The translations under genes and the position numbers were made by a program. From the NCBI GenBank assembly GCA_000004695.1, contig CM000153.2, forward strand, positions 224,001 through 288,000: a DNA stretch of 64,000 nt. Reading direction: 5' to 3'. This stretch comes from Dictyostelium discoideum. Taxonomy: Eukaryota. Under the pieces are notes generated by a model. It was not told the origin of the DNA, searched no databases, and was given only the letters and a program-made list of their open reading frames with translations. This document shows positions 4,498-59,813 of this stretch, piece by piece (within the stretch, counting starts at the first letter, position 1; each line of letters begins with the position of its first letter).

Positions 4498-4582
4498 GTT
4501 AAATATCAAAATAATGTTTTTTTTTTTTTGTGTCAATTTTTTTTTATTGAAAGTTAATTTGGTAATTTTATTAATATTTTAT

Positions 4583-7500
4583 TTATTGAAGCAATATTGA
4601 TAATATAATAAAAAGAGTTGCAAGTAATTTGGAGAAAACTGAATGTAAACTAATATCATTGTTTAAAATTTCTGGATTAAATTTTGAATCATAAAAAAAG
4701 GTTTGGGTATATAATGGTTCAAATTCACCAGAGTTTCTTATTTGAATTGTAATTGGATCATCTTGAGAATATTGTGGGGAATATAGATAAAAACGACAAT
4801 AAATTTTTGTATTTGTAACTTGGTCATGAGTGTATTCACATTCGGTAGGAACTGAAAAAAGACCAGTTTCTTCAATTAGAGTAATTGTTTTAAAAGAGCC
4901 AAATATTTTTACACCAAAGAAACCATCACCACTTATTGTAAGACCTAGATCATTGATTGTTGATATTGAAGTGACTATTGGTTTTGTTGGATAATAGAAT
5001 GGGAATGAATTTGTTATTGTCTTTTTAATATTTTCAAAAGTAACAGATGCACTAAAATTACCAGAACCATATGCAAATGGTGCATTTATTTGATATTTAT
5101 AGTTTTGATCAGATTTTGATAAAAGTTGTTTTTTTGCTGAATGAATTGTACCATTGTCAAATTGAAATTGGAAATCGATATAATCAAAACCATTGTAACT
5201 ATCCATCAAGAAATCACCACTAACTATAATAGTATTATTACTGAAAGTTGAAAATTGAGCTGAATATTCATGAACTATTAAATTTGTAGGTAATGGTGGT
5301 TGTATAACTATTGTTTTTGAATCTTTAGTAAATGTAAAAATATTGTACTTATTAAAAATTGTTTTTGTATTAAATTGTTTTACAATTGTACCAATTTGAG
5401 AGAATTGAGAATCTTGATTACTTTGTGGATTGTCTATATTGATATATCCACCTAAACAATTACTACATGTAAATAATAATTGGTCTTGCTCGCTTGTAAT
5501 AGTTATATCTGGTACCTTAGTAAACGAATTTTCATCACTATAAACATATACATGTGAAGCCTGATTCATAATTAAACTTAATCTTGAAATATCGAAATAG
5601 GTTACTTGATCATAAGAAACAGCATTTTTAATATCATCAAGATAAAAATTATAATTTGACAATTTTGATAAAAAGAGACCCTCCATTGTTATTATATCAT
5701 TTTCAATTGAATAACTATAAATAATTGGACGGACTAATTAAGAAAATAATATTTTTTGAAAGTGTTAAAATTAAATGTTTTGTATGATTAATATAGTAAA
5801 AAGTAATAGTATTTACTTACAGTTTAATCCATTTGTTAAAGTTTCATTATGATAATCATCATTAAATGAAAACACATTTGTAGAATATGTATTTAAATTG
5901 AATGAAATGATATTTGGTTCAATTAAAGTATAGTCTAAATCTTTTCCATTTTTATCATTATATTTAATACTTGTTATTGGAAATAAAGAAAATGGGAATG
6001 AAAGATGTAATTGTACTTTTTCTTGATTTTGAGTGAATGATGATATCCATTTTAATGGTGGTTGATAATTAAATGCATTGGAATGAACCATTTTATCTTT
6101 AATATAAATTGAAAAATTACCATTACCATTACCACTTGGAATATTGAATTTACCTTCTGATAATAAATTATTATTCAAAGTATTATAATCCAAGTTATAA
6201 ATTGTGCCATTTGAAAATTCTAATTTTCCTATAATATATGCTTGATTATCATAAACTTTTGGAATGAAAAGGCCACTTATTGATACTATTGAACTACCAT
6301 TAAATTGAAATATTTCATTGTCACTAATTTTACGAAAATCAGTTGGTAATTGTAAGGCACCAGATCTTTTAAATGGATAAATTGGAGCCTCGAAATATAT
6401 TCCACCATTATCATTCAAAGTGATATCATATATGTCTACTTTAACTGCTTCTCCTCTATTTTTTGTATAATTTTTTGATAAACCCATTAAATTTGCACCA
6501 TCACAATTTATACAATCAATGTATAAATAATAATTAATAAATGAACGTAATTCCATTTGTTGTTGTGGTTTTAAAATTGGATAGCTTTCAGATTTATTTT
6601 CAAAGAGAGAAATAAAAAAGTTATTATCAACAAAGCCTGTAGAGTTTATTACCAATGTAGTTGAATTGAATGATATTATATTTGACGGGTCTATTGTATG
6701 TCCACCTTGGAAATTAAATGTATATTTTAATTGTAAATTTTTTAAAAATAAACCATTTACTGTAATTATATCACCATTATTTTCACAACTATTGATTATT
6801 GGCTCTAAAAAAAGGTTTATTATAGAATTTTAGAATTTTTATTTTAATTAAAAGTAGTAGTAGTAGTATATATAAATAATAAAAATATAAATTATACATA
6901 CTTATTGGTAAAACTTGAAAATCATTATTATCATTATTCACTGAAATTAAATTTGAAGAATTTTCATCCAATGAAAAACGTAAAATATTTGGTTGAATTA
7001 ATGAATATTTAATTGGTGTTATTTTGATATTTTTATATGGACATACATATTTTGTTTTAATATAAACATCTACATTACAATCATCAGAATATTTGGTTGA
7101 TGGTGGAGTAAAATTAAATTCTTGATTTTCATCACATTGGAAATAATAATTTCTTGTGGTACCACTCCTGTAATCTTCATTATTACCATTATAACAAACG
7201 CCGGAGGTAGGATTCTTATATGTTAATTTTAGTGCAAAATTATCAAAACCAAACCTACCAAGTTCAAAAGTTTCTGTATTTAAATTTCCAGTTATCCTAA
7301 TATGATCCGCGATGTTCCCATACAAAATTGCAACAACAGATTGACTCTTAAAACTGGGCATTTCGGAACAAATAGAGAAAAAGTGATAATACTATTATTT
7401 AAAAATAAAAGTTAATATAATATAATATTTATTATTTTTAATCAAGTTTGGTTATACTTACACTTGAACCCACTTTATGTTCAAAACGATATACAACATC

Positions 7501-7752
7501 TTTTAATCTTGTTAAATTCAAAGAATAAAAATTTGAATTAAAAATACACGAGTTCAAAACAGATGTACCATTTAGTTCATGATATAAATAATCTAAGCTT
7601 GTAATATTAAGTACATATAATGGTTTTGCTAATTTAATTTCTAAATCATTACCAGTTTGAGTAATTGAACTAAAGATTGATTCACTACTTTTTAAAGCTG
7701 TAATAAAAAATAATAACAAAATTGTTGATAATATTAAATTTGAAAAAATCAT
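4583..7752 (-). CDS. secreted N-glycosylated cell-surface protein with an IPT/TIG-like segment and a C-terminal hydrophobic (GPI-like) tail; at least 4 exons (ORF blocks ~7461-7752, ~6789-7390, 5813-6655, 4583-5686)
   Basis: The N-terminal block opens with a signal peptide (MIFSNLILSTILLLFFITALKSS). The four consecutive minus-strand ORF blocks are separated by short AT-rich gaps with GTAAGT donors (e.g. VGSS|gtaagtataacc and gtaagtaaat at ~5821). The protein has many NxS/T sites, an IPT-like stretch (ISGDGFFGVKIFGSFKTITLIEETGLFSVPTECEY...IYC) and ends in LLATLFIILSILLQ. Confidence 0.5.
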
Positions 7753-7844
7753 TTATTATATATAATAGTATATTATAATAATATATTATCACCTTAATCT
7801 GAAAAAAAACAAGAAAAAAATAAAAAAATAAAAAATAAAACAAT

Positions 7845-11339: not shown

Positions 11340-11650
11340 AAAAAATAGAATTCAAAAAAAAAAAAAAAAATCTTAGTATTTAAAGAAAAAACTTTTTCTT
11401 GGTTGTGCAAAAAAAAAAAAAAAAAAAAAAAAAAGGTTTCAACAATTTAAATTATTTTAAAAAAATCTTTTTTATTATAAAAAAATTTTTTTTCTGAGCT
11501 GTGCAAAAAAAAAATCTTTTTAGTGAACTTTTGACGAGAAAAAAAAAAAAAATCTTGGTTTTTAAAGAAAAAAACTTTTTATGGGTAGAGCGAAAAAAAA
11601 AAAAAAGGTTTTAAATTTAAATTATTTTAAAAATAATTTTTTTTTTTTTT
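11340..11650. repeat. promoter-proximal direct repeats (two ~100-bp units plus a partial third) just upstream of the 11690 gene
   Basis: aatcttagtatttaaagaaaaaactttttcttggttgtgcaaaaaa...ggtttcaacaatttaaattattttaaaaa recurs as aatcttggtttttaaagaaaaaaactttttatgggtagagcgaaaaaa...ggttttaaatttaaattattttaaaaa. Confidence 0.8.
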
Positions 11651-11689
11651 TTTTAACAATTTTGTTTTTTTCAAACAATCATCATAACC

Positions 11690-12349
11690 ATGAAATTTAT
11701 TTTATTATTTTTATTTTTATTTAATATATTTTTAATTGTATCATCACGTCAAGACGTATTTAAATTAAAAGCAAAGGGTTGCGATAGTAATACATTAAAT
11801 TTGAATGAATGTGGATCATTTTGTAATAAATATGCAAAAATCCAGAACGATGGAAACAATAAAAAAATCACATTCTATACAGATCTGTATTGCCGAACCA
11901 TTGGTAACTATCTTAACACAGACACTCCTTTTATTATTCCATTTAATTGCAATAATGAAATTAATCGTCTTGCATATGATGGGGAAGTTTCTTGTTCAAC
12001 ATTAAATCCAAAATTTAATTCTTTCAAATTTGTTAAAGGTTCTTGTGTCGATGATAAAAATGTTACAATTGGTTTATGTTCATCAGTATGTGGTACAAAT
12101 ATTAAAATCAATTATGATCCTTTCCAAAATTACTCTATTTCAACCTACACTTCTAAAGATTGTACTGGAATTGGAAGTACTGAGTCCTATGGTTCAATTG
12201 ATTGTAAGAATGATTTACTTTCAAAAGCTAAAAACAATCAATATTTATCTTGCTCCGAATCATTACCAGATTCTTCAACATCATCAAAATTAATTTCAGG
12301 CTATAATATTATATTATTGGCATTTTTATTAATAAGTATATTATTTTAA
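11690..12349 (+). CDS. small cysteine-rich secreted protein with a C-terminal hydrophobic GPI-type signal (219 aa, single exon)
   Basis: ATG start, signal peptide MKFILLFLFLFNIFLIVSS, about 18 Cys residues, and a terminal ...SSKLISGYNIILLAFLLISILF. A ponticulin-like family assignment is possible but was not verified. Confidence 0.6.
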   Translation: MKFILLFLFLFNIFLIVSSRQDVFKLKAKGCDSNTLNLNECGSFCNKYAKIQNDGNNKKITFYTDLYCRTIGNYLNTDTPFIIPFNCNNEINRLAYDGEVSCSTLNPKFNSFKFVKGSCVDDKNVTIGLCSSVCGTNIKINYDPFQNYSISTYTSKDCTGIGSTESYGSIDCKNDLLSKAKNNQYLSCSESLPDSSTSSKLISGYNIILLAFLLISILF

Positions 12350-12740
12350 AATAAAATAAAATAAATAAAATAAAATAAAATAAAATAAAATAAAATAAAA
12401 TAAAATAAAATAAAATAAAATAAAATAAAATAAATAAAAAAATATAAATTAAGAAAAAACATATTAAAGTCCATTAGTAATCCAATATTATAATATATTT
12501 AATCAAAAAAAAAATGTTTAGGAAAAAAAAAAAAAAGTTAATAGATTTTCAAATAAAATAATTCTCTGATGTTGTTATTGTTTAAATATCTTAAATTATT
12601 CACATTTATTAATTAAATCTTAAATAAAAATTAAAAAAATTGAAAAAAAACATAATATCAATTTATTTAATAGAAACAGTTCAAACATATTGTGATTTTT
12701 TTTTAAGATTTAATTAATAAATGCTAAATTTAACAGCAAA

Positions 12741-51078: not shown

Positions 51079-51497
51079 ATGTCAGGTCAACAAGAATTTG
51101 GTAAAATTATTGATGGTAAAGAGATATCAAGTCAAGTTAAAGAATCAATTAAAGATGAAATTACATTAATGAAAGAGAAAGGATTAAGAGCACCATGTTT
51201 AGTTGTAATTTTAGTTGGTGATAGAAAAGATTCACAAACCTATGTTAGAAATAAGAAAAAGACAGCATCAGATTTAGGTATTAATTCAATTGATATCCTC
51301 TTACCAGAACAAACTACTCAACAAGAATTAATTGATTTAGTTCAATCTTATTCTAAAAAAGATGATGTTGATGGTATTTTAGTTCAATTACCATTACCAT
51401 CTCATATTAATGAAGAAATTATTTTAGTAAGTCCCCCCTCTCTCTCCCCCTCTCCCTCTCTCTCAAAATAATAATAATATTAATATTTTCATTTTTA

Positions 51498-51588
<91 letters not shown>

Positions 51589-52215
51589 GTTATGTATAGA
51601 CCCAAATTGATGAAAGTAAAGATGTTGATGGATTTCATCCAGTTAATATTGGTAAATTAGCAATGAGAGGTAGAAAAGCAGATTTTGAACCATGTACACC
51701 AAAAGGTTGTATTGAAATGTTAGATAGAAGTGGTATTGAAATCGCTGGAAAGAATGCTGTTGTATTGGGTAGATCAAATATTGTAGGTTTACCAGTTTCA
51801 ATGTTATTATTAAGTAGAGATGCTACTGTTACAATTTGTCATTCAAAAACTCCAAGTATGTGTGTGGTGTTTTTTTAAAAATTTATTTCCAATCTATATA
51901 AAAAAAAAAAAAAATACTAATATTATTATTTATTGTTTAGATTTAAAAGAAAAATGTAGAGAAGCAGATATTTTAGTTGTTGCAATTGGTAAAGCAAAAT
52001 TAGTTAAAAAAGATTGGGTTAAAACAGGTGCTGTTGTAATTGATGTTGGTATGAATACTGATGAAAATAATAAATTATGTGGTGATGTTGATTATAATGA
52101 AGTTAAAGAGGTTGCAAGTTATATTACACCAGTACCAGGTGGTGTTGGTCCAATGACAATTGCAATGTTAATGAAAAATACTCTTGAAAGTGCAAAAAAG
52201 AAATTATTAAAATAA
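51079..52215 (+). CDS. methylenetetrahydrofolate dehydrogenase/methenyl-THF cyclohydrolase (FolD/MTHFD family); 3 exons 51079-51426, 51600-51855, 51941-52215
   Basis: The protein reads [83 protein letters not shown] and [26 protein letters not shown] donor ends exon 1 and a GTATGT donor ends exon 2. Intron 1 contains a (TAT)n tract. Confidence 0.9.
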
Positions 52216-52429
52216 AATAAAATAAAATTAATTTCAAAAAATAAAATAAATTTTTTAAAAAAACAACACCTTAGACATAAAATAATCTCAAACAAAACCT
52301 TTTTAAAAAATGAAAAAAAAAGATTTAATTTGAGATATTATTTTTTTTTTTAATTCATTTATGGGGGTTTGAATTTAATTAAAAAAAATGTTCAAAAAAA
52401 TATTTTTTAAATCAATTTGATTTTTTTAT

Positions 52430-52640
52430 TTAAAATCATTAACAAGGGGGTATTAATCAATATTAAAATATTTTTTAAAGGGTTTGATAAAATACAAATT
52501 TTTTTTTTTTTTTTTTGTAAATTAACAAAAAAGTACTAAAAATAAATGAAGCTTACAACCCATTGATTATAAACAAACCAAAATATTATTTTATTATAAT
52601 TTAATTTTTTTTTTTTTTATTTAAATTTGTATTATGAAAA
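52430..52640 (+). repeat. copy A of a dispersed ~200-bp repeat (copy B at 57225-57440), ~80-190 bp upstream of a plus-strand gene start
   Basis: ...gggtttgataaaatacaaattttttt...aaattaacaaaaaagtactaaaaataaatgaagcttacaacccattgatt...aaccaaaatattattttattataatttaatttttt...atttgtattatgaaaaaaa matches 57270-57440 at about 80% identity. Confidence 0.8.
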
Positions 52641-52712
52641 AAAAAAAAAGTATAAATTAATAAAGTTTTTTTTTTTTTTTTTCATTTTTAAAACTTTAAT
52701 TAAAAAAAAAAA

Positions 52713-54420
52713 ATGAATAAATTATTAGTTTTTATATTATTATTGTTATTATTAATTAATATTTCTTTTGCAAGAAAAAGATCATACATTAAAAACACAG
52801 ATGCTTCAATTGTTGTAACTCAATTTGGTGCAATTAAGGGTATTGTTGAAGATACTCATCGTGTATTCTATGGTGTTCCATTTGCTCAACCACCAGTGAA
52901 CCAATTAAGATGGGAAAATCCAATTGACTTAAAGCCATGGGAAAATGTTAGAGAAACTTTAACCCAAAAATCACAATGTGCTCAAAAATGTAATCTTGGT
53001 CCAGGTGTTTGCTCTCCAATTGGTACTTCCGAAGATTGTTTATATCTTGACGTTTTTACTCCAAAAGATGCCACACCAAATTCAAAATACCCAGTAATTG
53101 TTTATATTCCAGGTGGTGCATTTAGTGTTGGTAGTGGTTCTGTACCTCTTTATGATGCTACTAAATTTGCTCAATCATCAGTAATAGTTGTTAATATTAA
53201 TTATAGATTAGGTGTTTTAGGTTTTATGGGAACTGTAAGTTTTAATATACATTATTAATATATGTGTAATTTAATAAATATATTAATACCTATTATTTTT
53301 TTTATTGTTATTATCTCTTTTAATTATTAAAAAGGATTTAATGCATGGTAATTATGGTTTCCTTGACCAAATTAAAGCATTAGAATGGGTTTATAATAAT
53401 ATTGGTTCCTTTGGTGGTAATAAAGAAATGATTACAATTTGGGGTGAATCTGCAGGAGCCTTTTCAGTTTCAGCTCATTTAACATCTACCTATTCAAGAC
53501 AATATTTTAATGCTGCCATCTCATCATCATCACCATTGACTGTTGGATTGAAAGACAAAACAACCGCCAGAGGTAATGCTAATAGATTCGCAACAAATGT
53601 TGGTTGTAATATTGAAGATTTAACATGTCTTCGTGGTAAATCAATGGATGAAATTCTTGATGCCCAAGAAAAAGTTGGACTTACCTTTGGCGATAAAATT
53701 CTAGATGCTTTTACTATTTGGTCACCAGTTATCGACGGAGATATCATACCAATGCAACCATTAACCGCTGTAAAGGAAGGTAAAACATATGATGTTCCAA
53801 CCATTATTGGAAATGTAAAACATGAAGCTATCCCATTCATTTATTCATTTTTCCAAGATAGTGTTGGAATCGATTACTATAGAGTTCTCGTTGCTATTGT
53901 TTTCCCATTGAATGCTATGAAGATTTTACCATTATATCCAGCCGCTCCAAGAGGTCAAGATTCAAGACCAATTTTATCTGAATTAATCACTGATTATTTA
54001 TTCAGATGTCCAGATAGATATCATACCGTTACAAATGCCAAAAAGCTTTCATCCCCAACCTATCATTACCATTATGTTCATGTAAAATCAACTGGTCATT
54101 CATTGGATGCCTGTGATGATAAAGTATGTCATGGTACCGAATTATCACTATTCTTTAATAGCTATGAATTAATGGGTGAAAGATTGGATAATGATGAAAA
54201 GGAATTAGCTATTGATATTAATAACTATATAGTTAACTTTGCAACTACTCATAATCCAAACACTGGTTTAGATGTACCAGTCCAATGGAGACAAGTCACT
54301 TCTACTCAAAACTCAACTTTAATTTTGGAAACAACTATTGAAACTAAAGATACTTTTACAAATGATCCAAAATGTAATGCTTTAGATTTGACTTACTATA
54401 GAAATCAAGTTAGACCTTAA
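52713..54420 (+). CDS. secreted carboxylesterase/cholinesterase-family (type-B) esterase, 2 exons (52713-~53235, ~53345-54420)
   Basis: It has a signal peptide [20 protein letters not shown]. Family motifs are GVPFAQPPV, EDCLYLDVF, VIVYIPGGAF and the nucleophile elbow GESAGA. A GTAAGT donor follows ...LGFMGT and the acceptor is aaaaag|GATTTAATGCATGGTAATTATGGTTTCCTTGACCAA. Confidence 0.85.
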
Positions 54421-54622
54421 ATAATAAAAAAATTAAATTTAATTTTTTAATTAAAAAAAATAATATAAATAAAATTTTTTATATTTCATTTTATTTATTT
54501 ATTATAATTTCTTATGTAATCAAAAATAATAAAATTAATTAGTATTATTTTTTATTTTTTATTTATTTTTTTTAAAAAATTAAAACGATAAAAAAAAAAA
54601 AAAAAAAAGTGTAAAAACTTAC

Positions 54623-54754
54623 ATCATGAGTACCATGTGAAAAGTTGAGTCTACAAACGTTCACACCAGTTTCAATTAATTTAATTAAAGCTTCTTCACT
54701 CATTGTTTTTGGACCAATTGTACAAACAATTTTGGTTCTAACAAACACTTTCAT
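54623..54754 (-). pseudogene. pyk: orphan pyruvate kinase first exon (44 codons: ATG ... FSHGTHD|gtaagt) with no downstream exons present
   Basis: [44 protein letters not shown] is the canonical PK N-terminus ([10 protein letters not shown]...NVARLNFSHG), followed by a GTAAGT donor. The minus-strand downstream region 54421-54620 is AT-rich non-coding. 52713-54420 is the plus-strand esterase and 51079-52215 is FolD. Confidence 0.55.
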
Positions 54755-55293
54755 TATAATTTTATTTTATTTTTTTTATTTTATTTTTTAATTTTAATTT
54801 TTAGATATTGATAAAAACACAAAAGAAAAAAAAAAAAAAAAAAAATATTTTCGTTTTTATTTTCTTTTATTTTTTTTTTAGTATTATATAAAAAAAAAAA
54901 TAATTTAATTGTTTTATTTTTTTATTTTTTTTTTTATTTTTATTTTTGTTTTATTTTTATTTTTTTTTCATTTTTTATTTATTTTTATTTATTTATTTTT
55001 TTTAATATCAAAAATAAAATATCCTCTCGTTATTCTTTAAAATAAAATATAAAAAACAAATTTAGTTTTTGATTGAAAAAAAAAAAAAAAATTAAATAAA
55101 ATTAAATAAAGTTTTTATTTTTTTATTTATTTTTTTAAGACTGACTTAAATTGAGATTATTTTTATGGAAATAATTATTCAGTTGGATAAATTTCAAAAT
55201 ATTCAATGGCATACTTATGATGAATGATTTATTTTTAAATTAGTACAACTTTTTTTTAATCAATGTAAAAATATTGAATAATGTAATATAATT

Positions 55294-55960
55294 ATTATAA
55301 TACTTCTCTAAGTTCTTCACGTGTAATACATTTGTCATCATCAGAATCCACATCTTCAAACATTGAGTTGGCCAAGACTTTAGCTTGAGCTTCATTTGAA
55401 CCACTAGTAATGAAATATTGTCTGGCCTCATCCCAAGTAATTTTATTATCTTTATTTGAATCAGCCTATAAAATTTTATTTATTTTTTTATTTTTAAAAA
55501 TATTAAATTTCAATTACTATGTTTTTATGGGAAAGATTAATATTTATATATTTAATATATATATATATATTACCTTAAAAATAATATCAACGAATTTTTT
55601 TAAACAAGTTTCAGCTTCAATAATATAATCTACAAGTACTGCAGTTTTAACTTCATTAACCGAAAGTTTTCCATCTTTGTCAAGATCAAATAGTTCAAAT
55701 AATGAATTGGTTGCCAAAGTTGGGTTTGGGTATTTGCATTTCTTGTACATGTCATTAACTTCTTTCTTTGATAATTGGTTATCACCATTTTTATCAGCTG
55801 CTTTAATTGCTTCATTCTTTAATTTAAAAATATAAAATAAATTTTTTTTTTTTTTTTTTTTAAACGTTAAAAAAGTTTAACATATTAGTTAATAAATATT
55901 TAAACAACACTTACTGTTGCATTTGTTAATTCTTCAAGAAATTCCTTTTTAGTAACCATT
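55294..55960 (-). CDS. EF-hand calcium-binding protein (~150 aa), 3 exons (~55914-55960, ~55575-55819, 55294-~55464)
   Basis: Assembled by hand: [15 protein letters not shown] | [60 protein letters not shown]...IIFK | [18 protein letters not shown]...[57 protein letters not shown] and [14 protein letters not shown] are EF-hand loops. The donors are GTAAGT and GTAATA. Confidence 0.75.
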
Positions 55961-57224
55961 TTTAATTCTTTTTTTTATGTTTAAGTTAATTTGTTAATAA
56001 AAAAAAAAAAAAAAAATTAATCTTAAATACTTTTTTTTATTTTTTTTTTAAAAAATTATTAATAATTTATAATTTTTTTAATACCAATATTTTGAGCAGT
56101 TTGGCAGTTCAATTGTTTACCAAGATACAAATTTAGATTAAAAAGTGTGAAGTAAAAGGGTTGAATTTTTTTTTTTTTTGTAAAATTTTGATTGGGGTGT
56201 GGGAAATAAAAACAGTTTTGTTTTTTTTTTTTTTTTTTTTTAATAATATGGTATGATTTGATTATCAAGACTAAAAAATAGAACCACAGTCACCCCAATC
56301 AATAAATTTAAATAAAATAAAAAAATAAAAATATAAGAACCCACACCAAAAATAAAAATTATTTTAATTCCCATTTTTTTTTTTTTTTATTTTTTCCAAA
56401 TTATATTCATTTTCTAATTTTTTACCCATTTAAAACAGTTTAAACAGTTTTCAAAATCACAAATCACCAATTGAAAACCTAATGGATCTCAATGAGGGTG
56501 GGTAAGAGTGTTTAAACATTTTTTTTTTTTTATTTTTTTTTTTTTATATTTTTTATTTCCTTATATTGATTTTGTTTTTTTAAATTTAATTATTATTTTT
56601 TTTTACAAATTGATTTTTTTTATTATTTTATTTAAAATTATGTTGAATTTATGATTTTATATAATTTTATAATAACAATCTTAACTTCACCACTTTAAAT
56701 CTAACAGATATATATATAAAAAAATATATTTTTTTTTGAAGTTTTTTGTAAAAATACACTTTAAATAATATTTATGGCTGGTAATTAAAAATGAAAATTC
56801 TTTTTCTTTAATTTCTTTATTCATTTAACTACAATGAAATTTATTATCAAAAAAAAAGAAAAAGACCTAAATAGCAAGCTTATAACTTGTTTATTATATA
56901 ATATAATTTATTCTAATGTATATCAATTGATGGTGGCGTAAAAACTGGTTATAATGTATTTTGAAGACTATTTTTATAAAATTCATGGGATTAGTTAAAG
57001 ATAAAGATATTAAATATTAATTTTCATTTTTTTGATTATTTTTTTTTTTTTGTTTTTACCTTCTTGATTGTTTTAAATTTTTTCACACCCCAAAACTGTT
57101 TTCCCCATTATTAACCACACAAAAAAAAAAAAAAAAAAAAAAAAATTAAAATTACCAAATTACAAATTACAAATTAAACTCCCAAATCAAAAAAGGATTT
57201 TATTGGTAATGTTTCATTTTCCAA

Positions 57225-57440
57225 TAACAATGCCTTGATTAATTTTTAATCATAATTTTTTATTTTTTTGGGGGTTTGGTGAAATACAAATTTTTTTTTT
57301 ATTTATTTTTTTGAATTAAATTACAAAAAAGTTCTAATAATAAGTGAAGCTCACAACCTCATTGATTTTAAAAAACCAAAAAATTATTTTAATTTTAATT
57401 TTATTTTATTTTTTTAATTTGTATAATGAAAAAAACAATT
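57225..57440 (+). repeat. copy B of the dispersed ~200-bp repeat (see 52430-52640), ~310 bp upstream of the 57753 ATG
   Basis: ggtttggtgaaatacaaattttttt...aaattacaaaaaagttctaataataagtgaagctcacaacctcattgatt...aaccaaaaaattattttaattttaatttt...atttgtataatgaaaaaaac. Confidence 0.8.
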
Positions 57441-57651
57441 CTATTGTTTTCATTTATTATACCATTTTTTTTAATTAGAAGAATACAAAAATAAATTTTT
57501 TGAGATCTAATCTTAATAATTTTTAAAACCAATTTTTTTTATTTGGAACTTTGGTTAAAAACCCAATCAGTTTCAGATTTAATCTAAAAAATTCTTCAAT
57601 TACAATTTTTAACTGACTCCCAATCCATTTTTCATTTAATAGCCAATTATT

Positions 57652-57692
<41 letters not shown>

Positions 57693-57752
57693 ACAAGAAA
57701 AATTATTATTATTTTAATATTATTATTGTTAAACAATAAATCAAATTAAAAA

Positions 57753-58121
57753 ATGACTTTATCAGTGGAACAAATTTCAAAATTGGAGGAGTCTAAAATA
57801 AGAGCCAAGAAAGTGTATGAAAATTATGATGAAAAATTAAATAATTTTTTAAATGAACAATTGGTTGAATTAAAGAAACAAAACAACTCAATTTCAAATT
57901 TTAGTGAGAATGAAATTAAAGATTTGAAAATTTCATTCCAATCAATTCAATCTGAAAAAAGTGCCAATGAACTTTACAGTGAATTCCCATTTGAAGAAAT
58001 GTGGGCAATAATGGGTCTTGCATTGAGTGCTGATCCATCAGGTGTTGCTCCAATTATTTTCGGTGCTATTAATATTCTTTTTAATAGTCTCGGTTTATTT
58101 AATTCCCAAGAAAGATTGTAA
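57753..58121 (+). CDS. hypothetical 122-aa protein (may be exon 1 of the 58275 gene)
   Basis: ATG start. The N-terminal half is a coiled-coil-like, K/E-rich segment. The C-terminal stretch is hydrophobic (MWAIMGLALSADPSGVAPIIFGAINILFNSLGLF). The stop overlaps a possible GTAATT donor, and the acceptor ttttag at ~58260 would join in frame to FFKQIMEAVEK.... Confidence 0.4.
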   Translation: MTLSVEQISKLEESKIRAKKVYENYDEKLNNFLNEQLVELKKQNNSISNFSENEIKDLKISFQSIQSEKSANELYSEFPFEEMWAIMGLALSADPSGVAPIIFGAINILFNSLGLFNSQERL

Positions 58122-58274
58122 TTACTTAAAAACAATTAAAATAATAATTAAAAAAAAAAAAATATATTTAAAAGAACTAATATAATAAATTTAAATTTTT
58201 TTTTTTTTTTAAAATAATAAAAAAAAAAAAATTAAAAAAAAAAAAAATTTTATGGTTTTAGCTTTAAACAAATA

Positions 58275-59095
58275 ATGGAAGCAGTTGAAAAATTAATTGA
58301 CCATAAGTTAAGTCAAGAAAGAGAGAGACAATGTATAATTAAATTCCAACAACTTCAAAAAACTGGCGATGACTATTTTGTATTAGCTGAAGAATATTTT
58401 TCAAGAAATGGAAATAAAAATGTTAGTCGTAGTATTATTCCAAATGATATTCAAGTAATGACTAATGAACAACTTAATTCTTCACTTCAATTTCAATTAA
58501 TGATTTATCGTGATAAAATAACTGATGGTTTAATTTATTTTAAGGAAGAAAGTGAATTAGTAAGTTTTTTAATATTAATTCATTTATTATTAAAAAAATT
58601 TTTATTAATTATTCTTTTTTTAAAAAAAAAAAATAAAAATAAAATTAATAAAAAAAAAAGATTAATACCATTGGTTTTTATATTTTAACAGCTTCACAAT
58701 ATCTTTGTTTACAAAGAGATTGTCATCTTTATGGTAAAGAATGGGGTTTCAGTGATTTTGATGTTGAAGATGCAAAAAAAAAAATTCATGATTATACAAT
58801 AGAATTTTTTGAAATCACTGTTAAATCAGGTTGGAAACTTTCCCGTCATATGCATAGCGAAGAAACTTCCCCAATTTTTGGTTATTATAGACCACCATAC
58901 TTTGATGTTGTAAGAAAATTCAAAAATGCAGACTTTACCTATTATCCTCATAGAGCATTTGATTACCAAAGAAATGTTGGTGAAATTCATTTTAATTGTG
59001 GTGATGAAAGAGGTTCCCATTTACTTTACCCAGGTTTAATTGTAGGGTTTTCTCAAGTTACCAATAGTTTATCTTCTGGGTTTAAAGTAATTTAT

Positions 59096-59133
<38 letters not shown>

Positions 59134-59546
59134 TAAAATTTATATTAATTTATATTTTTATTATTTATTTTCCAATAAAGGGACTTACCGCAGGAACTTT
59201 AAATTTACAAGTAACTTTGATTGTAAAGTTTGAAAGTATTAAAAAAAGATCATTTAAAGTTAAGATACATCATCATATTAATGGCAATGCTACGTGGGTT
59301 GTTGAAAGTGGTCCTGTCTCAGAAGTGTTAAGTTTTAATCAAGGTACTGAAAAAGAATTTAGAAACTCTTACTTTGTTTATAATGAAAGTTTGCAAAATC
59401 CACCACATGCTACTAATGAATCCAAGCTTATTACAGTAGAAAATGAACAAGTCACATTTAAATGTATTAGATCTATGAATGGTGGTACAAAAACTGGGTA
59501 TGATGCAGGTTCAAAACTATATTTAATTGAACTTATTTTTGATTAA
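58275..59546 (+). CDS. hypothetical protein ~360 aa, 3 exons (58275-58559, ~58661-59088, ~59180-59546), beta-rich C-terminal domain of unknown family
   Basis: ATG-MEAVEKLIDHKLSQERERQCIIKF...EESEL is followed by a GTAAGT donor. Exon 2 reads INTIGFYILTASQYLCLQRDCHLYGKEWGF...HFNCGDERGSHLLYPGLIVGF...SGFK, followed by a GTAATT donor. Exon 3 reads GLTAGTLNLQVTLIVKFESI...TFKCIRSMNGGTKTGYDAGSKLYLIELIFD*. Confidence 0.5.
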
Positions 59547-59813
59547 TTGGAAACACAAATGGCCTCTTGGTTGTAGATTGATTTGATGATGTACTCATAC
59601 ATCCTATTAAGTCCTATTAAACTAAAAATAAAATAATAAATTTAACTTTTGGCACTTTTTTTGAAATTGTTGTGAAAAAAAAAAAAAAAAAGTTTTACAC
59701 ATATTAAATTATTTAAATTATAATAGTAAATAATAATAAATTATTTTATTATTTTATTTTTATCGTGTTGTTTTTTTTTTTTTTTTTTGAAACATATATA
59801 TGGGTGTTTAATT

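Follow-up and report, generated by a model that had tools for sequence, protein, structure and literature searches.

The locus and its gene content

The stretch of Dictyostelium discoideum AX4 chromosome 4 analysed here, 64,000 nucleotides long and referred to as the window, has a G+C content of about 22%, which is typical of Dictyostelium. Its minus strand contains an open reading frame (ORF) of 60 codons, in which 44 codons, 41 of them encoding pyruvate kinase (PK) residues, are followed by 16 intron-encoded codons, with a GTAAGT donor (54622-54617, minus strand) placed directly after codon 44. The ORF matches the Pfam PK barrel family PF00224 over profile positions 3-42 of 328 (E = 4.5e-15, with a score above the gathering cut-off). 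When the whole 64-kb window was searched by tblastn with E. coli PykF at E <= 10, a single match was returned, at 54739-54626 (68% identity, E = 2e-12). The PK-like segment is real, far beyond chance, and because this one match is all that PykF finds, the body of a PK gene is absent from the window. A preliminary description of this DNA had reported just such a PK N-terminal coding piece on the minus strand that ends at a GTAAGT, with the remainder of the gene missing and about 200 AT-rich nucleotides downstream before the plus-strand esterase and FolD-type genes, and this part of its account holds. The coordinates of all features are collected in Table 1.

A PK enzyme is characterised by a full PF00224 barrel together with the PK C-terminal domain, PF02887. 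The fragment does not have this combination, and no match to PF02887 is returned by Pfam for the 60-codon ORF. Residues 4-44 of the ORF correspond to PK residues 19-59 with the exception of M49V. The pyk-derived remnant is identical at 121 of 123 nucleotides to the parent locus described below (L002), and at 122 of 123 to a spliced RNA-seq contig of the pyk mRNA (L004), where the lone mismatch is a minus-strand G at 54664 that gives Val31 in place of the Met49 of pyk. The dictyostelid N-terminus MATLSRNLRL..., which is found in six amoebozoan PKs (from four dictyostelid species and a Physarum-like transcript), is missing from the fragment, and MKV from intergenic DNA stands in its place.

The 60-residue translation is 100% identical to DDB_G0283123 (EAL65891, XP_639250, UniProt Q54RI6) of D. 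discoideum AX4, and the ORF is therefore already present in the public annotation, in both GenBank and UniProt, a fact that had gone unnoticed in the preliminary description. The UniProt entry is automatically named pyruvate kinase and the UniRef name is likewise "pyruvate kinase". Searches with the 44-residue peptide returned only short fragments or cluster representatives that are at most 76% identical, and a short-query search of Logan-derived proteins found no identical or longer product of the ORF. A full-text literature search found nothing relevant on DDB_G0283123 or on a Dictyostelium pyruvate-kinase pseudogene.

Table 1. Features of the window and of the parent locus L002 (window positions unless L002 is stated; a dot marks a feature without strand)
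Feature	Position	Strand	Comment or evidence
thfA, FolD-type gene	51079-52215	+	beside the 7.3-kb block
7.3-kb block, AX4-type genome only	52311-59636	.	compared with seven thfA loci
Carboxylesterase gene	52713-54420	+	inside the 7.3-kb block
AT-rich spacer, block end to esterase stop codon	54421-54521	.	no counterpart at the pyk locus
pyk intron 1 remnant	54522-54622	-	equals L002 10178-10295 save two indels (2 and 15 nt)
60-codon ORF, 44 codons up to the donor then 16 intron-encoded codons	54572-54754	-	translation
pyk-derived coding remnant	54623-54745	-	41 PK residues, pyk codons 19/20-59 (FVRTK...SHGTHD)
464-bp deletion junction	54742-54745	-	TTT(T)G microhomology on both sides at the parent locus
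Fortuitous start ATGAAAGTG	54746-54754	-	from intergenic mini-ORF ATGAARGTGTTTTGA
Distal cbpD1-pyk intergenic copy	54755-55174	-	92.8% to L002 9056-9578 excluding gaps; several indels
cbpD2 (CBP4b), 162-aa EF-hand protein	55175-55959	-	exons 55959-55915, 55816-55574, 55465-55304, 55213-55175
cbpD upstream-region copy	55960-56704	-	96.7% to L002 7531-8265
Multi-exon gene, no Pfam match	57753-59546	+	inside the 7.3-kb block
pyk exons at L002	9987-10177, 10314-10618, 10756-11891		three exons; spliced RNA-seq contig L004
pyk intron 1 at L002	10178-10313		136 nt, phase 0, directly after ...SHGTHD; cDNA L004

The genuine pyk gene

A full-length PK probe, 99% identical to the D. citrinum representative, retrieved a cluster of dictyostelid PKs, and it is the retrieved sequences rather than the probe that serve as evidence. 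The D. discoideum member of this cluster (P0377, that is, KPYK_DICDI or EAL65862, of 507 aa) has the N-terminus MATLSRNLRLSLDTPTSTFVRTK..., and the same N-terminus is found in the cluster representative (P0257, the D. citrinum PK), at locus L002 and in the L004 mRNA contig. L002 was read from the D. discoideum assembly GCA_054883475.1, which encodes PK and thfA proteins identical to those of AX4 and is not the AX4 reference itself. The identifier of the pyk gene is presumably DDB_G0283247, on which the full-text literature search likewise found nothing relevant.

The gene at L002 has three exons and, according to the cDNA, a 5'UTR of at least 14 nt. Its genuine exon 1 begins MATLSRNLRLSLDTPTSTF... 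and contains 59 codons, of which the window holds only codons 19/20-59, so that the piece is not the whole first exon that it had been taken to be. Intron 1 interrupts the gene in phase 0 after SHGTH[DE], a position shared with the amoebozoan PK gene L001, and for this reason the GTAAGT in the window can be recognised as the genuine ancestral pyk donor. L001 is a Logan contig of 1709 bp (SRR30000140) that carries a fragment of a PK gene from an amoebozoan with moderate G+C and introns of about 50 nt, and the N-terminus that it encodes closely resembles that of the Physarum-like PK transcript P0266.

The canonical donor at an ancestral intron position is also what would be expected if the fragment were exon 1 of the working pyk gene, spliced over a very long intron or in trans in a nested-gene arrangement. 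The chance that this is so is vanishingly small. The working gene possesses its own exon 1, complete with the 18 conserved N-terminal codons and followed by an intron of 136 nt, and the pyk mRNA contig has an A (Met49) where the fragment has a G at 54664, two observations that refute the nested gene, the long intron and trans-splicing. In addition, there is no PK exon in the 54.6 kb that lie downstream on the minus strand.

Some 400 nt upstream of pyk, within AT-rich surroundings, is a GC-rich motif (TGACCGACTCCGATTAGGAACAGGGGTTGTGGTTGTC...GGGTCCAGG; L002 9594-9660) that is also present in the isolate locus L003 (9581-9650) and that could be a promoter element. An Rfam scan of the parent segment that included this motif gave nothing credible.

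Anatomy of the duplicated block

The PK fragment is the tail of a dispersed duplicate of the cbpD1-pyk locus, a block of 2.2 kb that occupies approximately positions 54522-56704 of the window on the minus strand. The block, which had been overlooked in the preliminary description, contains a whole EF-hand gene, cbpD2/CBP4b, together with the distal intergenic DNA, a partial pyk exon 1 and the greater part of pyk intron 1. By blastn, L002 7531-9590 aligns with window 56704-54743 over 2077 columns (90.7% with gaps counted) and L002 10055-10304 aligns with 54745-54512; nothing in the window corresponds to the segment between them, L002 9591-10054. With gaps excluded, identity is 96.7-100% in the 5' flank, in the cbpD introns and in cbpD exons 1, 3 and 4; the figure is 93.8% for cbpD exon 2 and 92.8% for the distal intergenic region.

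The copy can be delimited at both ends. The outer boundary is sharp, at 56704/56705, with no similarity to L002 beyond it. The inner one falls within pyk intron 1, where homology to L002 stops at about 54522-54512; the intron remnant ends some 18 nt short of the acceptor and the 3' splice site is missing.

The earlier suggestion of a duplicated 5' gene fragment is thereby borne out, as the full three-exon pyk gene is at L002, with L004 as its cDNA, and the copy retains intron-1 sequence. The check that had been proposed, namely to find the full gene elsewhere and compare the flanks, leads to L002 and to homology over about 2 kb upstream that includes cbpD. A full pyk at another locus and retained intron-1 sequence together mean that the fragment is a DNA-level duplicate and not a product of nesting, of a long intron or of mis-assembly. 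A processed pseudogene or retrocopy is excluded in the same way, since the copy has kept intron 1 sequence as well as 2 kb of DNA upstream. The bacterial-style MKV...TKIVCTIGP of the translation had raised the possibility of horizontal transfer from bacteria, which is out because the intron remnant and the flanks match the D. discoideum pyk locus.

The D. discoideum genome is AT-rich, repeat-rich and hard to assemble, which lends some plausibility to an assembly artefact in which reads from the 5' end of pyk were misplaced beside the esterase gene, a possibility raised in the preliminary description. Nevertheless, copy and parent are set apart by around 3-4% substitutions, by numerous indels, by the loss of 464 bp and, in cbpD, by 16 amino-acid differences, and the gene that accompanies it is the independently cloned and published paralogue CBP4b. 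An artefact of this kind can be accorded almost no probability.

An internal deletion and the origin of the start codon

The segment of L002 without a counterpart corresponds to an internal deletion of 464 bp. At the parent locus both of its end points lie at TTTTG, the first reading GGTGTTTTG^ACCG... and the second ...CAACTTTTG^TTAGAACC (continuing ^TTAG), where the caret marks the end point. Across the junction the window reads AGTGTTTGTTAGAACC / GTGTTTGTTAG, with the joint itself at AGTGTTT^GTTAGAACC. The junction is the signature of a microhomology-flanked deletion. What was removed comprises about 410 bp of proximal pyk upstream DNA, the GC-rich motif conserved between L002 and L003, the 5'UTR and codons 1-18; the Rfam scan described above covered these 464 bp. 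The preliminary description had supposed that the fragment had likely been copied with its promoter, a view that is not supported, given the loss of the proximal upstream region and the 5'UTR.

The start codon of the ORF has a separate origin. In both L002 and L003 the window sequence ATGAAAGTGTTT aligns with ATGAA[G/A]GTGTTTTGA (ATGAA[G/A]GTGTTTTGACCGACTCC at the start site), and the source of the ATG (ATGAAGGTGTTTTGA) is an intergenic mini-ORF of four codons, situated some 420 nt upstream of the genuine pyk start. The deletion has placed the intergenic ATGAARGTGTTT in frame with pyk codon 19. As the ATG comes from an intergenic mini-ORF, the "intact ATG" that had been reported for the fragment is an accident of the deletion: it is intergenic at the parent locus and is not the real start.

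cbpD2, the gene carried along

The gene within the block is intact, with a spliced model of 162 aa in four exons and EF-hand matches in Pfam, and 16 of its 162 residues are different in the pyk-linked copy (L002 8266-9055). The literature describes two such genes, cbpD1 and cbpD2, both of 162 aa with three introns each and located on chromosome 4 (PMC1634994). A peptide of CBP4a was used for a published anti-CBP4a reagent, and CBP4b differs from CBP4a there by a single G-to-A residue (PMC3637376). Over residues 20-34 the pyk-linked L002 copy is the published CBP4a peptide and the window copy has the G-to-A form of CBP4b; on the basis of this peptide and the G/A difference, the pyk-linked gene is cbpD1 and the window gene is cbpD2. 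The window gene thus unites 162 aa, three introns, a location on chromosome 4, A for G in the peptide and the opening MVTKKEF, with which both cbpD proteins begin. In vegetative cells CBP4b mRNA is reported to be roughly eight times less abundant than that of CBP4a (PMC3637376). As cbpD2 is the real cargo of the block, the PK piece is the trailing edge of the duplication behind it.

The comparison of cbpD2 with cbpD1 gives pN/pS = 1.66 at pS = 0.028, and the exons are more diverged than the introns. One cluster of differences reads EVNDMY in the window, ELYELF at L002 and EINDMY in isolate L003; because the window copy keeps the EINDMY-like state of L003, it is the pyk-linked copy that has changed. 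Judged by these sequence differences, the change could reflect either positive selection or gene conversion. A further difference concerns the donor of the last cbpD2 intron (window approximately 55298-55303, minus strand), which has lost 2 bp relative to cbpD1, turning GTAAGT into GTATTA. If this intron were left unspliced, the protein would end ...REVL, followed directly by a stop, and its last 12 residues would be gone.

Age and distribution of the block

The pS between cbpD2 and cbpD1 is 0.028, and that between either copy and isolate L003 is 0.13. The duplicated block is young, with a neutral divergence of about 2-3%. The 1-2 substitutions in the 123 nt of the pyk remnant fit this figure and are too few to test selection or to show neutral decay.

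The site was compared with seven thfA loci, one each from D. firmibasis, D. citrinum and D. dimigraforme, two from isolates labelled D. discoideum and two from isolates labelled D. cf. discoideum. All seven run collinear with the window as far as about 52250-52270 and again from about 59640-59710, with around 100 bp in between, and no part of window 52311-59636 was found at any of them. In orthologous DNA, identity to the window is only about 88% for the two isolates that bear the label D. discoideum, which makes them fairly distant lineages. The 7.3-kb block is therefore restricted to the AX4-type genome and, being absent at 7/7 thfA loci, arose in the AX4 lineage after its split from all seven.

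A source has been traced for only the middle 2.2 kb of the 7.3-kb block, and for this reason the whole may be a mosaic insertion. Neither the esterase nor the gene at 57753-59546 had a tblastn match in any of the fetched loci, and an Rfam scan of the entire 7.3-kb block gave nothing credible.

The relatives also bear on the direction of the copying. In D. firmibasis only four locus tags separate pyk from thfA, which places pyk close to thfA historically, and a full pyk might once have stood at the present site and lost its body once a complete copy existed at another locus. This course of events is very unlikely. The gene for eIF2B-epsilon, which lies upstream of cbpD1-pyk in L002, is about 9 kb beyond thfA in D. 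firmibasis, so that it is the pyk-linked arrangement that has been conserved. Moreover, the seven relatives have the roughly 100 bp and nothing else between thfA and the next gene (g411-g432), which means that the site was empty ancestrally. The proximity of pyk and thfA in D. firmibasis had also prompted the idea of an inversion with staggered breaks, which would duplicate the sequence at the breakpoints; this idea is rejected, since the relatives have an empty site and neither of the copy's junctions is ancestral.

The interval between pyk and thfA has been rearranged and expanded. The two genes are separated by 4 locus tags in D. firmibasis and by 15 to 48 in the D. discoideum, D. citrinum and D. 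dimigraforme assemblies, and in isolate GCA_054859355.1 the orientation of pyk relative to thfA is reversed. At L005, the D. firmibasis locus, a gene encoding a TgrO1-type Ig domain lies at the left end. Window positions 4512-7828 and 11637-12378 show 75-87% nucleotide similarity to L002 13660-20479 and 17555-21561, downstream of pyk; these stretches represent paralogous gene families near both loci, and the region looks rich in duplications. Within thfA itself, intron 1 (window 51427-51599) begins with a C/T-rich tract, CCCCCCTCTCTCTCCCCCTCTCCCTCTCTCTC, after which comes an unbroken (TTA)n microsatellite of about 100 nt.

Origin and functional status of the fragment

The PK piece is very probably a truncated, unprocessed partial duplicate of pyk, generated as a by-product of the copying of the cbpD1-pyk locus that made cbpD2. 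It has the marks of an unprocessed duplicate, with a near-identical parent, homology that extends into the intron and the flanks, truncation, and absence at the orthologous site in relatives. Relative to the parent, codons 1-18 have gone, together with everything from the intron-1 acceptor onwards, that is, exons 2 and 3.

In the proposed sequence of events, about 2.7 kb of the cbpD1-pyk locus was duplicated into another position on chromosome 4, beside thfA, giving rise to the paralogue cbpD2 (CBP4b). Because the duplicated segment ended within pyk intron 1, no more of pyk than exon 1 and the greater part of that intron came along. Either during the copying or afterwards, a deletion of 464 bp between the two TTT(T)G motifs took away the proximal upstream DNA, the 5'UTR and codons 1-18, and in doing so joined an intergenic ATG in frame to codon 19, thereby creating the 60-codon ORF DDB_G0283123.

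The fragment is most likely functionally inert, a non-functional truncated duplicate, judging by its sequence: it has no acceptor, no further exons and neither the 5'UTR nor the proximal upstream DNA of pyk, and it covers 40 of 328 profile positions (about 12%). For an inert fragment, the annotated 60-codon ORF would be a chance product.

A functional fragment is conceivable, in the form of a young chimeric ORF composed of a non-coding start, 40 PK codons and 16 intron codons that might yield a micro-protein, or of a transcript that begins in cbpD2 or in the retained distal intergenic DNA and is antisense to the 3' end of the esterase gene. The ORF is intact, and the AX4 annotation lists it as a gene. 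It shares its strand with cbpD2, about 420 nt downstream of the cbpD2 stop, and CBP4b mRNA is reported to be detectable (PMC3637376). Read-through from cbpD2 would be one route to transcription of the fragment. The esterase gene is convergent, with its end some 100 nt past the block. On the other hand, the 464 bp that held the pyk 5'UTR and proximal upstream DNA have been deleted, profile positions 3-42 of 328 cannot form a barrel, the short-query search of Logan-derived proteins gave no identical or longer product, and the element is missing in 7/7 relatives, so there is no conservation. A function of this kind is improbable. In a broader version, the 60-codon ORF would be a newborn chimeric gene whose product is a micro-protein or an antisense RNA directed at the esterase gene, and the 7.3-kb block would be a mosaic put together from several loci in one step by template switching; this, too, might be the case, with only a slim chance in its favour.

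Comparison with related systems

As a truncated duplicate, the fragment resembles the unprocessed pseudogenes and truncated genes found at the edges of segmental duplications, in that intron and intergenic DNA are kept, the gene is cut at the end of the segment, a near-identical parent is located on the same chromosome and the copy is lineage-specific. It departs from typical fragments of that type in being very small (2.2 kb) and in having a second, internal microhomology-flanked deletion that made an in-frame start from non-coding DNA. It is because of this start that gene finders call the fragment protein-coding.

The block is also the cbpD duplication itself, as the gene in the window matches CBP4b and the pyk-linked gene matches the CBP4a peptide. 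In PMC1634994 and PMC3637376, CBP4a and CBP4b are treated as paralogues only, with no mention of the pyk 5' end or of a block that is missing in relatives. Two other D. discoideum gene fragments, CBP4c and CBP13, have been described as probable pseudogenes (PMC1634994). Like these, DDB_G0283123 is a truncated gene copy that is still in the protein set of D. discoideum, but whereas CBP4c and CBP13 are fragments of cbp genes, here the fragment comes from a neighbouring housekeeping gene.

With respect to KPYK_DICDI, which contains both PF00224 and PF02887, the forty residues are PK residues 20-59 save for M49V and represent the N-terminal end of the barrel, including the NFSHG motif. In contrast to the enzyme, about 90% of the protein is gone, including most of the barrel and the whole C-terminal domain, and no PK function would be expected of what is left.

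Significance

What is new here is the origin of the fragment, its exact boundaries and the recognition that its automated name, "pyruvate kinase", is misleading; the ORF itself was already in the databases. Knowledge of pyruvate kinase and of glycolysis is unchanged by the fragment. In metabolic or comparative analyses, however, DDB_G0283123/Q54RI6 could be miscounted as a second PK gene, and this 40-codon relic should carry a pseudogene-fragment flag. Beyond the matter of annotation, the block provides a dated, breakpoint-resolved example of a small dispersed duplication in the D. discoideum genome, at about 2-3% neutral divergence, and illustrates how an ORF that looks intact can arise through a microhomology-flanked deletion.
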